Shown here one piece after another: positions 41,185 through 61,992 of a stretch of DNA of 64,000 nt. The stretch comes from Eledone cirrhosa. Lineage: Eukaryota. Every line of letters begins with the position of its first letter. Position 1 is the stretch's first letter. The position numbers were made by a program, and so were the translations under genes. A model generated the notes under the pieces. That model was given only the letters and a program-made list of their open reading frames with translations, was not told where the DNA came from and ran no database searches. Location: NCBI GenBank assembly GCA_964016885.1, contig OZ024742.1, forward strand, positions 223,758,001-223,822,000, read 5' to 3'.

Positions 41185-41204
41185 TTTATATCTGTATTTT
41201 TAAC

Positions 41205-41358
41205 TGCTGGTCAATCAATGATAAACACTGATTGCCAAATAAATTAACTATGGAGATATAAAAGATACAGAAGCGAAAACCAACCAAACAGTGAGTGTGT
41301 TCTGTTATTATTTCTGGCAATATTACAACAATATGACCCTCCCCAAGTATAACAATAT
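41205..41358 (+). mobile_element. Penelope-like pLTR fragment
   Basis: Homologous to 59945-60098; ends ATGACCCTCCCCAAGTATAACAAT running into TA repeats. Confidence 0.7.
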
Positions 41359-50063: not shown

Positions 50064-50841
50064 TTTTGTTTCTGAATTTGTTTAGCAAGATTCTTTATCT
50101 GAAATCGTGTGTTGAAACCGATATTGTTATACTTTGGGAGGGTCAATGTACTGAAGGACAATGTAGAAACAAAAATATAGTGTACATAGGTGAGACAGCT
50201 CGTAGTATAGGGGAACGGATAAATGAACACTGGCGAGACCTTCAAGATAATAAAGAATCATCTGTACTGTACCAACATGCTAAGATAGAACACAAGGGTA
50301 AATTAGAGAACATAGAAATAAAAATAGAATCTACACACAGAAAAGATGCAATGTTTAGACAAATTACAGAGGCAATAAACATAAAAGAATTACAACCAAA
50401 ATTAAATAGAAAATATGAGTGGAACAGCAACATCACAACTTACAATTAAGGACAAAATGAAAACACACACACACATAGAACAAACAACCAACCAATAACA
50501 TAAATAAATAAATAAATAAATAAATAAACAAATAGATAAATGAACATAAACACACACAGACACCCGGATGTGGCGCATGCGCAAACTGAGCACACAACAC
50601 ACACACAGAAACAAAATGGCGTAGGACAGAGAAAGGAGAGGCACAGAAACAAAGAAAGGAATCCCCAGTCACTGAAGAGGTCACAGAGTGTGTGACGAAA
50701 GGACTATGACTATATATAAACAACTATCTGGTTGTGGAACCAACCAACCAGAAATTTATAAATTTATAAATATATAATAAATTGAAGTGAAAGCAACTGG
50801 TGCGTGTGTTTCTTATTGGTAACATGACCCTCCCAAAGTAT

Positions 50842-50849
<8 letters not shown>
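50064..50849 (+). mobile_element. Penelope-like element: GIY-YIG C-terminus, pLTR and inverted 5' segment
   Basis: 50146-50449 encodes C-x4-[18 protein letters not shown]...SVLYQH...RQITEAINI...PKLN (GIY-YIG). A perfect 25-bp inverted repeat links 50121-50145 and 50825-50849; a hammerhead motif lies at 50667-50711. Confidence 0.88.
50667..50711 (+). ncRNA. Minimal type I hammerhead ribozyme motif in Penelope pLTR
   Basis: AGTCA-CTGAAGA-g-GTCACA(gagtg)TGTGAC-GAAA-GGAC-TA-TGACT; one extra nucleotide after A9. Confidence 0.82.
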
Positions 50850-51989: not shown

Positions 51990-53610
51990 GTGATATTGTC
52001 GGGGAGAAGTGTGTACTTAACGATGACGGCGTACTTGCCATCACCGACGCCGATAAGAAGGTAGCTTGGAAGTGTCATTATGAAAGGCTACTAAATGAGG
52101 AGAATAAATGGGAGAAAGACAGTCTCCCCCACATCGACCCAATAGAGGGACCAGCAGTGTTAGTCGAGGGTAGTATAATAAGTAAGGCAATCAAAGATAT
52201 GAAGACGGGCAAGGCGGCTGGGCCTTCGGAAATAGTTGCCGAGATGCTGAAGGCATCTGGTACGGTGGGACACACCATGGTCACCCGGATAGTCAACCAA
52301 GTCATACAGAATGGGGTTGTTCCACCAGGGCTCCTGTATGCTGATGACCTCGCACTCATAGCTGAATCTATGGTAGAACTAGAGAATAAATTCCAAACTT
52401 GGAAGCAGGGACTAGAAAGAAAGGGTCTCAAAGTCAACATGACAAAGACTAAGGTCCTTGTAAGTAGACGAGAAAACAGAACCCAGATCCCCTCAGGGAA
52501 ATGGCCTTGCTCAGTATGTAGGAAAGGTGTAGGTAGGAACTCCATTCTCTGCCCCAAATGCAAACAATGGGTACACAAGAGATGTAGCGGGATCTCAGGA
52601 AGCTTAATTAAGAATGTAGGATTCACATGCAGCAGCTGTGCTGATACAGCAAGCAGCAAACAGCCACAGGAAACAAGTACCACCAATCTCTGGGAGGGCC
52701 CTGTAGAAACAGTAGACAGCTTCTTCTACCTAGGTGACCGAATTAGCAGCGGAGGTGGGTGTTCAGAAAGTACAATAACTAGGGTAAGAACGGGATGGAA
52801 GAAGTTTAGGGAACTACTACCACTGCTAGCTGCAAAAGGCTTCTCCCTCAGAATGAAAGGCAGACTGTATGATGCGTGTATCCGAACAGCAATGTTGCAT
52901 GGTAGTGAGACCTGGGCGCTGAAGGTGGAAGACTTAGGTAGATTAGAGAGAAACGAAGCCTGCATGCTCCGATGGATGTGTAACAGTAATATACGTGAAC
53001 GACAAAGCATAAATGAATTGAGAGAGAGACTGAGCATAAGAGGAATCAAATGCTGTGTGCAGGAGAGGCGGTTGCGCTGGTATGGACATGTGATGCGTAT
53101 GAAGGATGACAGCTGCATAAAAAGGTGCAGAGCACTAGAAGTTGATGGAAACCGCGGATTGGGGAGACCCAAGATGACCTGGGATGAGGTGATAAAAGCC
53201 GACCTTACTCAATTGCACCTCTCAAAGACAATGACACACAACCGTGACTTCTGGCGTCACGCAGTAATACAGAGTACCCAACCTCCCATGGGTACAAGCT
53301 GAAGCATATAGACAATATGCCCACACACCCCCCACCGCAAGGTGGTCGTGGAGGTGCCACGGCAAAAAAGCACCCAGCCCACACTGTAAAGTGGACGTGT
53401 AGGCGCCACGAAAAAGCACCCAGCACTCACTGTAAATGAGGTTGGTGTTAGGGAGGGCATCCAGCTGTAGAAATCAAGCCAAATCAGTTCCTGTATGAGC
53501 AAGGCATGGTCAGCCAACCAGACACTGCCCACAACAGGACAACCCGTCTAACCCATGCTAGCGTGGAAGAACGGACGTAAAACGATGATGATGATGATGA
53601 TGATGATGAT
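51990..53610 (+). mobile_element. Young RTE LINE copy with in-frame internal deletion, intact 3' UTR
   Basis: Open frame [13 protein letters not shown]...GKAAGPSEI...QNGVVP|GLLYADDL...PHD-like finger...FYLGD...stop 53302; tandem-repeat UTR and (TGA)n tail. Confidence 0.92.
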
Positions 53611-53753: not shown

Positions 53754-54102
53754 CATATGTATGTATATATATATATATATATATATACATATGTATGTAT
53801 ATATATATACACATATGTATGTATATATATACATATGTATGTATATATATACATATGTATGTATATATATATATATATATATGTGTAGAGGTTATATTTA
53901 ATTTGTTGGGATACAACAAGCAAAATATTTTTATAACTGATATAAAGCACTCAACAAATTATTGGAGTAAATATACAATATATTAACAAATGGAAACTAT
54001 ATTTATAAAACCATATTTATTTCATTATACATTAGTTTTATAAATAAATATTGACATACCCTAGGGTATGTCAATATTTCATTATAAAACTAACCTATAT
54101 TA

Positions 54103-54169
54103 TATTTTATCTGATGAAAGCGCACCATAGTTTTGCCTTGGTGGCCCTTGAAATATGTATAATGAAATA
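54103..54169 (+). ncRNA. Type I hammerhead ribozyme motif
   Basis: TATTTTAT-CTGATGA-AAGcgCACCA(11 nt)TGGTGgccCTT-GAAA-TATGTA-TA-ATGAAATA. Stems I and III are near-identical to the 45492 motif; stem II differs in sequence but still pairs. Confidence 0.8.
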
Positions 54170-55010
54170 AATATTGTTTTATAAATATAGTTTCCATTTG
54201 TTATATATATATATATATAATCATCATTATTTCATTTTACGTCCGATTTTCTCTGTTTGCAAGGTCTGAGAATATATATATATATGGAGGCACATGGCTT
54301 AGTGGTTAGAGCATTGCAATCGAAAGGTTGTGAGTTCAATTCTCAGACCGGGTGATGTGTTGTTCCCTTGAGGAAGGCACTTTATTTCACATTGCTCCAG
54401 TTTACTCAGCTGTAGAAATGATATAGGGACTGGGGTCCATATCATTCCACTACAAAGTGGTCGTGGAGGTGCCACGGCAAAAAAGCACCCAGCACTCACT
54501 GTAAATGAGGTTGGTGTTAGGAAGGGCATCCAGCTGTAGAAATCAAGCCAGAATCAGTTCCTGTCCCACCCTTCCAAGCAGGGAAAAAGCGGACGTAAAA
54601 TGAAATGAAAATGAATGAATGATATGTATATATGAATATAAATATACATATGTATATATATATATACATATGTATATGTGTCTATGTATATATACATATA
54701 TATATATACATATATATATATACATATGTATATGTGTATATGTATATATACATATATGTATATATACATATATGTATAATCATCATCATCATCACCGTTT
54801 TACGTCCGTTCTTCCACGCTAGCATGGGTTAGACGGGTTGTCCTGTTGTGGGCAGTGTCTGGTCGGCTGACCATGCCTTGCTCATTATATATACATATAT
54901 GTATATATACATATATATACATACAAATGTGTATATATATAGATATGTATATGTATATATACATATATATATATACATATCTATGTATATATATATATAT
55001 ACATGTGTGA

Positions 55011-57727: not shown

Positions 57728-59515
57728 CTAGAAGGTGTCATACCAAAAGATTGGTGCAGTAGCATCATTGTCAACTGCTACAAAGGTAAAGGTGATGCAC
57801 TAGATAGAGGAAACTATAGAGGTATAAAGCTGATGGACCAGGTCATGAAAGTAACAAAAAGAGTTATAGTACAGTTGATTAGGGACCGGGTGAAACTAGA
57901 TGAGATGCAATTTGGGTTTGTACCAGGAAGAGGCACCATTGATGCCCTCTTCCTTGTGAGTTATAGGAAAAGTACCTGGCTAAAAGTAAGCCACTCTACC
58001 TGGCATTCGTCGATCTCAAGAAAGCCTTTGACAGAGTTCCACGTGCTATAATCTGGTGGGCTCTTAGAAAACTAGGACTAGATGAATGGCTTGTGAAAGC
58101 TGTACAAGCCATGTATAGGGGAGCAGTCAGCAAAGTTAGGATTAGCAATGAGTATAGCGAGGAATTTAGCGTACAGGTTGGTGTCCACCAGGGCTCTGTT
58201 CTTAGCCCTCTCCTGTTCATCATAGTCCTGCAGGCAATAACGGAGGAGTTTAAGACCGGATGCCCATGGGAACTCCTGTATGCTGATGACCTCGCACTTA
58301 TAGCTGAATCTATGGTAGAAACTAGAGAAGAAATTCCAAACTTGGAAGCAGGGACTAGAAAGAAAGGGTCTCAAAGTCAACATGACAAAGACTAAGGTCC
58401 TTGTAAGTAGACGAGAAAATAGAACCCAGATCCCCTCAGGGAAATGGCCTTGCTCAGTATGTAGGAACTCCATTCTCTGCCCAAAATGCAAACAATGGGT
58501 ACACAAGATATGTAGCGGGATCTCAGGAAGCTTAATTAAGAATGTAGGCTTCACATGCAGCAGCTGTACTGGGACAGCAAGCAGCAAACAGCCACAGGAA
58601 ACAAGTACCACCAATCTCTGGGAGGGCTCTGTAGAGACAGTAGACAGCTTCTGCTACCTAGGTGACTGAATTAGCAGCGGAAGTGGGTGTTCAGAAAGTA
58701 CAATAACTAGGGTAAGAACGGGATGGAAGAAGTTCAGGGAACTACTACCACTGCTAGCTGCAAAAAGCTTCTCCCTCAAAATGAAAGGCAGACTGTATGA
58801 TGCGTGTATCCGAACAGCAATGTTACATGGTAGTGAGACCTGGGCGCTGAAGGTGGAAGATTTACGTAGATTAGAGAGAAACGAAGCCTGCATGCTCTGA
58901 TGGATGTGTAATAGTAATATACGCGACCGACAAAGCATAAATGAATTGAGAGAGAGACTGAGCATAAGAGGAATCAAATGCTGTGTGCAGGAGAGGCGGT
59001 TGTGTTGGTATGAACATGTGATGCGTATGAAGGATGACAGCTGCATAAAAAGGTGGAATGGAAACCGCGGAGTGGGGAGACCCAAGAAGACATGGGATGA
59101 GGTGATAAAAGCCAACCTTACCCAATTACACCTCTCAAAGGCGATGACACACGACCGTGACCTCTGGCGTCACGCAGTAATACAGAGTACCCAACCTCCC
59201 ATGGGTACAAGCTGAAGCATATAGACAATACGCCCCCACACCCTCCCACTGCAAAGTGGTCGTGGAGGTGCCACGGCAAAAAAGCACCCAGCCCACACTG
59301 TAAAGTGGACGTGTAGGCGCCACGGAAAAAAAGCACCCAGCACTCACTGTAAATGAGGTTGGTGTTAGGAAGGGCATCCAGCTGTAGAAATCAAGCCAAA
59401 ATCAGTTTCTGTATGAGCAAGGCATGGTCAGCTGACCAGACACTGCCCACAACAGGACAACCCGTCTAACCCATGCTAGCATGGAAGAATGGACGTAAAA
59501 CGGTGATAATGATGA
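57728..59515 (+). mobile_element. Young RTE LINE copy (RT, PHD-like finger, 3' UTR)
   Basis: GNYRGIKLM, QFGFVPGRGT, VGVHQGSVLSPLLF, LYADDL; several frameshifts; near-identical to 52330-53610. Confidence 0.92.
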
Positions 59516-59554
59516 TATATATATTTCATATCAGAAAACTAATATATATATATT

Positions 59555-60090
59555 AGTTTTGCGAGTTTTTTTTATATGAAATCGTGTGTCGAAACAAATA
59601 TTGTTATACTTGGGGAGGGTCATATTTATGTAATAATATTGCCAGAATTAATAACAAAACACACTCACTGTTTGGTTGGTTTTCGCTTCTGTGTCCTTTA
59701 TATCAGTTAATTTAATTTATTCGGTCCTCAATGTTGCCATTGACTGACCAACGGTCAAAAATACATATATATAGTCTAATAAAGTTCTTTCGTTGCACAT
59801 CTGCAACATCGTCAGTGGTGCTATTATGTTTCCTCCCGTTGCATTGTATGCCTACGCCATCTTTGGATGGCGTAGGCATACAAAGAACTTTGTTAGACTA
59901 TATATATGTGTTTGTGTCTATATTGTATCTATTTTTTTTTAGCATTGGTCAGTCAATGGCAACATTGAGGACCGAATAAATTAAATTAACTGATATAAAG
60001 GACACAGAAGCGAAAACCAACCAAACAGTGAGTGTGTTTTGTTATTAATTCTGGCAATATTATTACATAAATATGACCCTCCCCAAGTAT

Positions 60091-60098
<8 letters not shown>
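59555..60098. mobile_element. Penelope-like head-to-head pLTR palindrome
   Basis: Arms 59598-59861 and 59866-60098 are inverted copies around a tttg loop. Both end in ATGACCCTCCCCAAGTATAACAAT, as in the GIY-YIG element at 50.8 kb. Confidence 0.8.
59776..59826 (-). ncRNA. Hammerhead ribozyme core (stem I imperfect)
   Basis: The minus strand reads CTGACGA-t-GTTGCA(gatg)TGCAAC-GAAA-GAAC-TT; same layout as the 50667 motif with compensatory changes in stem II. Confidence 0.65.
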
Positions 60099-60133
<35 letters not shown>

Positions 60134-60438: not shown

Positions 60439-61177
60439 GATATACATCATCATCATCATCATCACCGTTTTACGTCCGTTCTTCCACACTAGCATGGGTT
60501 AGACGGGTTGTCCTGTTGCGGGCAGTGTCCGGTCGGCTGACCTTGTCTTGCATATACAGGATCCGATTCTGGCTTGATTTCTACAGCTGGATGCCCTTCC
60601 TAACATCGACCTCATTTACAGTGAGTGCTGGGTGCTTTTTTCCGTGGCGCCTACACTATACATACATATATATACATACAATCATACATATACATATATG
60701 TAAAAGGTAAACAGAAATAACAACACAATCGGTACAGTATATGGAAGGTATATATATCTATACATACATATCTATATATCTATACATACATATATATATA
60801 TCTATACATACATATATATATATCTATACATACATATATATCTATCTATACATACATATATATCTATCTATACATACATATATATCTATCTATACATACA
60901 TATATATCTATCTATACATACATATATATCTATCTATACATACATATATATCTATCTATACATGTATACATATCTATCTATACATGTATACATATCTATC
61001 TATACATGTATACATATCTATCTATACATGTATACATATCTATCTATACATACATATCTATCTATCTATACATACATATCTATCTATACATACATACATA
61101 CCTATCTATACATATATACATACCTATATATACATATCTATCTATACATATATACATATCTATACATAAATACATAT

Positions 61178-61992
61178 CATCATCATCATCACCGTTTTAC
61201 GTCCGTTCTTCCACGCTAGCATGGGTTAGACAGGTTGTCCTGTTGTGAGCAGTGTCTGGTCGGCTAACCATGCCTTGCTCATACAGGAACTGATTTGGCT
61301 TGATTTCTACAGCTGGATGCCCTTCCTAACACCAACCTCATTTACAGTGAGTGCTGGGTGCTTTTTCGTGGCGCCTACACGTCCACTTTACAGTGTGGGC
61401 TGGGTGCTTTTTTGCCGTGGCACCTCCACGACCACTTTACGGTGGGGGGTGTGGGGGTATATTGTCTATATGCTTCAGCTTGTACCCATGGGAGGTCGGG
61501 TACTCTGTATTACTGCGCGACGCCAGAGGTCACGGTCGTGTGTCATTGCCTTTGAGAGGTGTAATTGGGTAAGGTCGGCTTTTATCACCTCATCCCAGGT
61601 CATCTTGGGTCTCCCCACTCCGCGGTTTCCATCAACTTCTAGTGCTCTGCACCTTTTTATGCAGCTGTCATCCTTCATACGCATCACGTGTCCATACCAG
61701 CGCAACCGCCTCTCCTGCACACAGCATTTGATTCCTCTTATGCTCAGTCTCTCTCTCAATTCATTTATGCTTTGTCGTTCACGTATATTACTGTTACACA
61801 TCCATCGGAGCATGCAGGCTTCGTTTCTCTCTAATCTACCTAAGTCTTCCACCTTCAGCGCCCAGGTCTCACTACCATGCAACATTGCTGTTCGGATACA
61901 CGCATCATACAGTCTGCCTTTCATTCTGAGGGAGAAGCCTTTTGCAGCTAGCAGTGGTAGTAGTTCCCTAAACTTCTTCCATCCCGTTCTTC
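61178..61992 (-). mobile_element. Young RTE LINE 3' fragment, inverted relative to the 52-53 kb and 58-59 kb copies
   Basis: RTGWKKFRELL...QSTRPPMGTS, near-identical to the end of ORF 52157-53302, with the same UTR. Confidence 0.92.

Follow-up and report, generated by a model that had tools for sequence, protein, structure and literature searches.

Head-to-head ends of a Penelope-like retrotransposon in Eledone cirrhosa and an excess of 5′ ends at a predicted hammerhead cut site

The stretch of Eledone cirrhosa DNA analysed here (64,000 nucleotides, referred to as the window) contains a palindrome of about 500 bp at 59598-60098 in which only one arm carries a hammerhead-like ribozyme motif, raising the question of how the other arm came to lack it and whether the ribozyme itself was involved. 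A first-pass annotation had read the arms as head-to-head pLTRs and proposed a shared mechanism that removes one ribozyme copy when such pairs form. The structure that it described was confirmed on re-reading, with an 18-bp perfect stem (59844-59861 paired with 59866-59883) around a TTTG loop, outer arms identical at 154/154 bases (59598-59751 versus 59945-60098), CTGACGA...GAAA on the minus strand of the left arm, and a right-arm gap of 55 nt between 59881 and 59882 that spans the hammerhead core, resumes inside GAAA and has AA microhomology. Family positions are numbered below from C3 of the CTGACGA core as 0, which lies at 59815 in the left arm. Three further features had not been described: 24 nt in a TG/TA stretch are missing from the left arm and present in the right arm (from 59909), the left arm is about 45 nt longer at its outer end, where it carries a 'tail', and a G-to-A change at 59780 (G35 = A), just past the predicted cut, removes the second helix I pair, so that the predicted ribozyme kept in the left arm is itself damaged. 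The features of the locus are as follows.

59523..59553, plus strand: outer left flank, a short (TA)n and a 19-nt partial inverted tail copy (59523-59541), tail-to-tail, read from the sequence
59554..59597, minus strand: PLE 'tail' extension found in the left arm only, from sequence comparison of the arms
59598..59864, minus strand: left arm, a 5′-truncated pLTR covering family positions about -49 to +233, without 24 nt of the TG/TA stretch
59780..59817, minus strand: minimal hammerhead motif, its cut position predicted from hammerhead numbering
59816-59817, minus strand: 5′ side of helix I
59808-59815, minus strand: CUGACGAU
59792-59807, minus strand: 6-bp helix II
59788-59791, minus strand: GAAA
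59783-59788, minus strand: helix III, with the predicted cut between 59782 and 59781
59844..59883, no strand: central 18-bp perfect hairpin, loop TTTG
59866..59881, plus strand: 16-nt inverted copy of the left arm 5′ end (positions -46 to -31), a presumed filler
59882..60098, plus strand: right arm, a second 5′-truncated copy covering +25 to +233, no tail
59890/59891, plus strand: predicted cut site in the right arm
60073, plus strand: start codon of the element ORF in the right arm
60095..60128, plus strand: (AT)n right flank, likely the target microsatellite

The central hairpin is one of two perfect non-microsatellite hairpins of at least 14 bp in the window, and an Rfam match below threshold also marked the outer left flank (59523..59553) as a hairpin. 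Other repeats occur as inverted copies on either side of the palindrome, at 59311-59514 and 60454-60656 (91% over 204 nt) and at 52786-53601 and 61176-61991 (98% over 816 nt). Since sequencing can generate long perfect inverted repeats artefactually, a fold-back in a read or in the assembly was considered as the origin of the locus, and it is highly improbable given that two gaps, substitutions and the tail distinguish the arms, and that the exact junction, which occurs once in the genome, is also present in a contig of the public run X2, indicating that it is not peculiar to the genome assembly used, though X2 may come from the same individual.

The family to which the arms belong is abundant, with 13,810 exact genome matches to a 27-mer from the arm and 2,303 first-look candidates for the arm sequence in the 3-Gb genome. 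In longer copies the arm sequence continues into ORFs of about 1,100 amino acids, the ORF body being absent from the locus in the window. A Pfam search of the family ORFs assigned no domain directly and a PDB sequence search also gave no name; of 247 ORF homologues, those listed bear RT (PF00078), GIY-YIG (PF01541) or PF26215 domains, the best match among them being an Octopus vulgaris RT-domain protein (69%). The reverse transcriptase and C-terminal GIY-YIG endonuclease of endonuclease-bearing (EN+) Penelope-like retrotransposons (PLEs) are thus attributed to the family through the domains of its homologues. Tandem units that create pLTRs were found with a period of 4,147 bp (L036/L037, G000:C1:14381200-14396300), these being near-identical full-length units of a young subfamily. 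Together with the inverted pairs described below, the 27-mer matches, ORF homologues and tandem units uphold the identification of the locus as head-to-head pLTRs with a hammerhead-like motif, and, as judged from sequence, its arms are the pLTRs (3′ ends) of an endonuclease-bearing PLE. A C-x4-C-xx-C motif precedes the endonuclease half and the flanks are (TA)n, a cysteine linker and target preference that would fit a Neptune-like family, and open frames of about 1,100 amino acids in two copies (L041 and L047) suggest that it may be recently active. A second, more diverged copy (84%) of the 3′ end of the same family lies at 41187-41358 of the window, and PLE tail fragments lie at 50076-50145 and 50821-50849. 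Two other classes of element were rejected: a non-LTR retrozyme, which consists of short tandem units each with a hammerhead, because the locus is an inverted pair with one core and the single tandem array examined (L259) is coreless, and a MITE or fold-back DNA transposon, because the exact junction is unique and the arms represent retroelement copies truncated to varying extents.

Minimal hammerheads of metazoan PLEs have been described as having CUGANGA with an extra base, G10.1-C11.1, a long helix II and a tiny self-complementary helix III (PMC4209133, as far as its accessible text goes). The motif found here contains CUGACGA, one extra U, G10.1-C11.1, a 6-bp helix II closed by G-C, and GAAA, and this core is the same in old and young subfamilies. 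Helix III is self-complementary, with predicted self-duplex energies of -3.6 and -1.8 kcal/mol, and H17 differs between the subfamilies (old, U; young, A), giving NUH at the predicted cut, which falls between +33 and +34. Helix I is shorter than the 4-5 bp of the general definition, with 2 bp and one further pair in the family and 1 bp in this copy; a 2-bp helix I has been reported for the hammerhead of D. virilis Penelope (PMC4209133, accessible part). No hammerhead was found by Rfam at gathering score across the window or at E of 10 or below around the locus. Similarity to the published motifs lies in the core, the extra base, G10.1-C11.1, the long helix II and the self-complementary helix III, and the difference in helix I, of 2 bp in this family and 1 bp in this copy.

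Whether one core is selectively removed was addressed with a sample of head-to-head pairs taken from the first 100 of the 13,810 27-mer matches, which cover the first 43 Mb of one contig. Of these matches, 52 sit in 26 minus/plus pairs within 10 kb, all of which were retrieved. The inner ends of the paired arms vary freely, from +147 to beyond -3600, and exactly one arm carries a tail in 23 of the 26 unselected pairs (p = 4e-5). Pairs with two, one and no cores numbered 13, 11 and 2 by script, compared to 13.2, 10.7 and 2.2 expected if the arms are independent (p = 0.88), or 12, 12 and 2 against 12.5, 11.1 and 2.5 after moving a pair whose left arm lacks CTGA (L050), a count in which, with 26 pairs, a small bias against two-core pairs would escape detection. 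Each of the 16 arms without a core is a simple 5′ truncation that begins somewhere between +6 and +147. In this sample, the census of pairs by core number that the first-pass annotation had proposed fits independent 5′ truncation.

The combination of central hairpin and gap does recur, at five family loci in the sample examined (the palindrome, L066, L075, L148 and L153), and this part of the earlier proposal stood; the ribozyme-linked cause did not. In that order, the left ends of the gaps are -31, -9, -27, -9 and -28 and the right ends +25, +26, +13, +29 and +42, scattered positions of which none is at the cut (+34). Core-spanning gaps of at least 28 nt are rare genome-wide (4, compared to 650 normal spacings), all four lying in head-to-head pairs and three adjoining a central hairpin, and four tight palindromes (L063, L064, L056 and L284) keep both cores. 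In L041, a 19-bp central hairpin with about 45 nt of fold-back is followed by a 1.8-kb jump near -3690 and both cores are kept; the same architecture thus occurs far from any ribozyme, which argues, as do the core counts and the scattered gap ends, against a mechanism that removes one ribozyme.

One could still suppose that the loss of one core was linked to the ribozyme, or that ribozyme cutting produced the right arm, the left arm serving as template for its first 9 nt during joining, since the predicted cut is enriched in 5′ ends (see below) and the resume points of the palindrome, L066, L148 and, by eye, a hairpin at 54046-54079 of the window lie 3-9 nt upstream of the respective predicted cuts. 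This is improbable. For two of these four loci the range is imposed by the search pattern that found them, and in L075 and L153 the sequence picks up again at +13 and +42. Ends at +24 to +28 show no enrichment (6 compared to 9.5 expected), core counts match independence, and the excess at the cut is found equally in host-joined copies (19/28) and in head-to-head pairs (9/28). The palindrome right arm resumes at +25 to +27, outside the peak and 7-9 nt upstream of the predicted cut, indicating that the palindrome itself is not a clean cut product. The hairpin at 54046-54079 belongs to a different family (53971-54218), probably 'case 1' of the first-pass annotation, with a 17-bp central hairpin and a core confined to the right arm. 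Inspected by eye, related copies have a predicted helix I of 7 bp, and the left arm of this hairpin picks up about 7 nt before the predicted cut, as the palindrome does.

The reading that we favor, with a probability of about 0.65, is that the palindrome consists of two differently shortened PLE 3′ ends placed head to head in a TA microsatellite by one insertion, with a fold-back filler and an AA join. The two-ended priming, snap-back copying and order of events that we infer would run as follows. Both broken ends of a cut TA target would prime a cDNA in one insertion, one cDNA running to -49 and the other to about +25; the left cDNA would then fold back and copy 16-18 nt of itself, and the folded-back end would join the shorter right cDNA through AA microhomology. 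The 55-nt 'deletion' would accordingly be sequence that the right arm never had, and the gap is likely a joining scar where the fold-back filler met the second, shorter copy. The data directly show what the arms are and where they end, a single tail in each pair, truncation points that are independent of one another, and fold-back fillers at numerous further junctions. Among 11 hairpins centred at -46 to -60, seven fold back 16-55 nt and then enter host DNA, two jump to a second arm (the palindrome and L066) and two have two full arms with both cores. Snap-back synthesis is known for polymerase theta and for group II intron-like reverse transcriptases (bioRxiv 2022.03.14.484287, available portion). 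The occurrence of one tail per pair is also consistent with the behavior of the Anolis Poseidon protein, which in vitro cuts and extends both strands at AT-rich targets and uses two internal start sites on the RNA that flank the tail (Frangieh et al. 2024, PMC11167929, in the text available). Fold-back plus jump was seen in one of the 26 unselected pairs (L041) and is uncommon enough that the class rests on few loci, three of which came from a pattern that matches only resume points at or before +29.

The main competitor, which we regard as possible and distinctly less probable, is later deletion, in which a near-perfect palindrome with two cores formed first and cruciform or hairpin instability then cut out the 55 nt and the 24 nt through microhomology, with no role for the ribozyme. 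Both gaps do lie near the center and both have microhomology, a 13-nt gap is present in one arm of L063, and the four long core gaps in head-to-head pairs, three of them at a hairpin, fit later deletion as well as they fit an origin at insertion, which for its part needs a separate slip for the left-arm 24-nt gap. Long perfect stems nevertheless survive in the assembly (309 bp in L056, 195 bp in L211 and 137 bp in L053), seven of the 11 hairpins lack any second arm and are explained by one-step fold-back, and arm divergence is no lower in closer pairs (Spearman 0.18, p = 0.22, 50 pairs). The same lack of trend led us to reject general gene conversion between close arms. In the outer arms of the palindrome, five non-majority variants are shared with zero differences, which could reflect arm-to-arm repair; a 44-nt stretch holding two of these variants was found in only one other copy. 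Subfamily variants are in general common to both arms of a pair, with a mean of 3.4 differences in about 134 nt (50 pairs) compared to 6.9 for random pairs. The L211 arms have seven non-majority variants in common and no difference. Elsewhere, an array of five units in tandem (L259, G000:C1:34853000-34856000), each about 315 bp long and consisting of a small coreless head-to-head insertion with a TA run, is a nascent satellite.

The first-pass annotation had also stated that uniformly distributed deletion end points would indicate generic palindrome instability rather than a ribozyme-linked process. The ends are not uniform and show a sharp excess at the predicted cut, an excess that concerns about 3% of copies and does not include the palindrome. 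It was measured with a pattern for copies broken between +15 and +58, which gave 91 genome-wide matches among 2,089 anchors, all retrieved; 14 were dropped (13 with same-strand family sequence upstream, including L148 and L153, and one full copy) and 77 were kept. Exact starts at +34 were found in 12 of these 77 truncated copies compared to 2.3 expected (p = 2.5e-6, simulation with real junction flanks) and starts at +29 to +35 in 30 of 77 compared to 13.4 expected (p = 7e-6), or 28 after two misaligned copies are set aside, p values that are only partly blind, as the window of positions was examined after a first look, the site itself having been fixed beforehand by hammerhead numbering. Neighboring bins were not enriched, either upstream (14 versus 25) or downstream (10 versus 11.5 and 23 versus 27). 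With an overlapping pattern, 17 of 25 ends from the first 30 of 143 matches lay at +30 to +35; by eye, 7 of 100 rows of this pattern start at +1, the U of CUGA.

In the younger subfamilies (96 distinct copies among the first 100 of 163 matches, less 10 set aside as full copies or for an internal gap or duplication), a weaker signal was obtained under strict scoring, with 22 of 86 ends compared to 14 expected (p = 0.018), rising to 31 of 86 (p = 7e-6) when ambiguous rows were included. In a control window placed about 100 nt downstream, ends were evenly spread at 1.5-2.0 per base (by eye, first 100 of 113 matches). Among partner arms, which lie outside the pattern selection, 8 of 33 end at +34 to +38, a figure that near-symmetric pairs inflate. 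Given a pattern pass rate of 0.27, the excess corresponds to about 65 of 2,089 copies, or about 3%.

Several other sources of this peak were examined and rejected. None of the 28 copies had a same-strand core within 0.9-1.5 kb upstream, as would be expected had a later insertion split them at +34; comparisons among the 28 for segmental duplicates gave only partial matches between other repeats; and stalling of the reverse transcriptase at the base of helix II is not indicated, as ends at +24 to +28 are not enriched. An association between arms starting at the cut and absence of the tail disappeared against controls (6/23 versus 15/42, p = 0.58). The peak could also stem from transcription initiation at +34 or from a different RNase site there. 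A possible second cluster of 5′ ends was observed at -45 to -54, just upstream of ATGGCG, in 12 of 30 scripted loci (L272-L301) and by eye in about 31 of 100 rows, slippage in A/T runs blurring the cluster; it may represent the pLTR transcription start, and the left arm of the palindrome ends within it (window 59861-59864). For the peak at +34, the pile-up at the predicted cut likely records cutting by the ribozyme inside cells. A minority of template RNAs would have cleaved themselves before being copied, and their cDNAs would have run off at +34. We consider it quite probable that the genome holds a fossil record of in vivo PLE hammerhead cleavage, in which about 3% of copies would derive from self-cleaved RNA and start at the predicted cut.

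Head-to-head shortened ends are an ordinary product of Penelope insertion and a previously published arrangement. In EN+ PLEs, inverted 5′-truncated copies with a tail at one end have been described (Craig et al. 2021, PMC8557442), and the locus resembles the pLTRs in the available part of that account in its inverted 5′-truncated copy at the 5′ end, the 30-40-bp tail at one end only and the (TA)n targets; it differs in that both copies are cut to the pLTR and a fold-back filler is added, fillers and end points being absent from that part of the description. Cervera and de la Pena (2014, PMC4209133) had already noted paired hammerhead motifs, one on each strand and separated by 100-700 bp; the accessible text of that paper offers no in vivo evidence, and the genomic pile-up of 5′ ends at the cut is what is added here. 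Two-strand priming, start sites flanking the tail and AT-rich targets are shared with Poseidon, for which, in the portion of the study available, uncut RNA was the dominant substrate and no RNA reads ended at the cut (PMC11167929); our estimate that about 3% of genomic copies appear to derive from cut RNA is compatible with this and new. In R2 and L1Tc, which have 5′ HDV-like ribozymes, self-cleavage likewise sets the RNA 5′ end that is copied into the genome, but there, according to the accessible text of two reviews, the cut gives the normal full-length 5′ end, whereas here it would give short dead copies in a minority of events (PMC6765202, PMC7761336).

The in vivo activity of PLE minimal hammerheads was 'still a mystery' in a 2020 review (PMC7761336), and another review offers, in the part available, only hypotheses for their role (PMC6765202). 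In the mostly non-subscription literature that our searches covered, we met no description of PLE copies whose genomic ends coincide with the hammerhead cut, and the accessible text of a 2026 preprint was silent as well; genomic ends mapped in the supplement of PMC11167929 may be relevant to this point. The structure of the palindrome is therefore already known in kind, and the pile-up at the cut site appears to be the new element, a side result that outweighs the palindrome locus in importance. The one-tail-per-pair rule and the independent truncation of the arms provide counts that support two-ended priming. The excess of 5′ ends at the predicted cut would be indirect in vivo evidence, testable in any assembled genome. 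If this interpretation is true, the cut position would be known to single-base resolution with no bench work, germ-line cutting by a hammerhead whose helix I has 2 bp would have been shown, and the same census could be applied to any PLE family.
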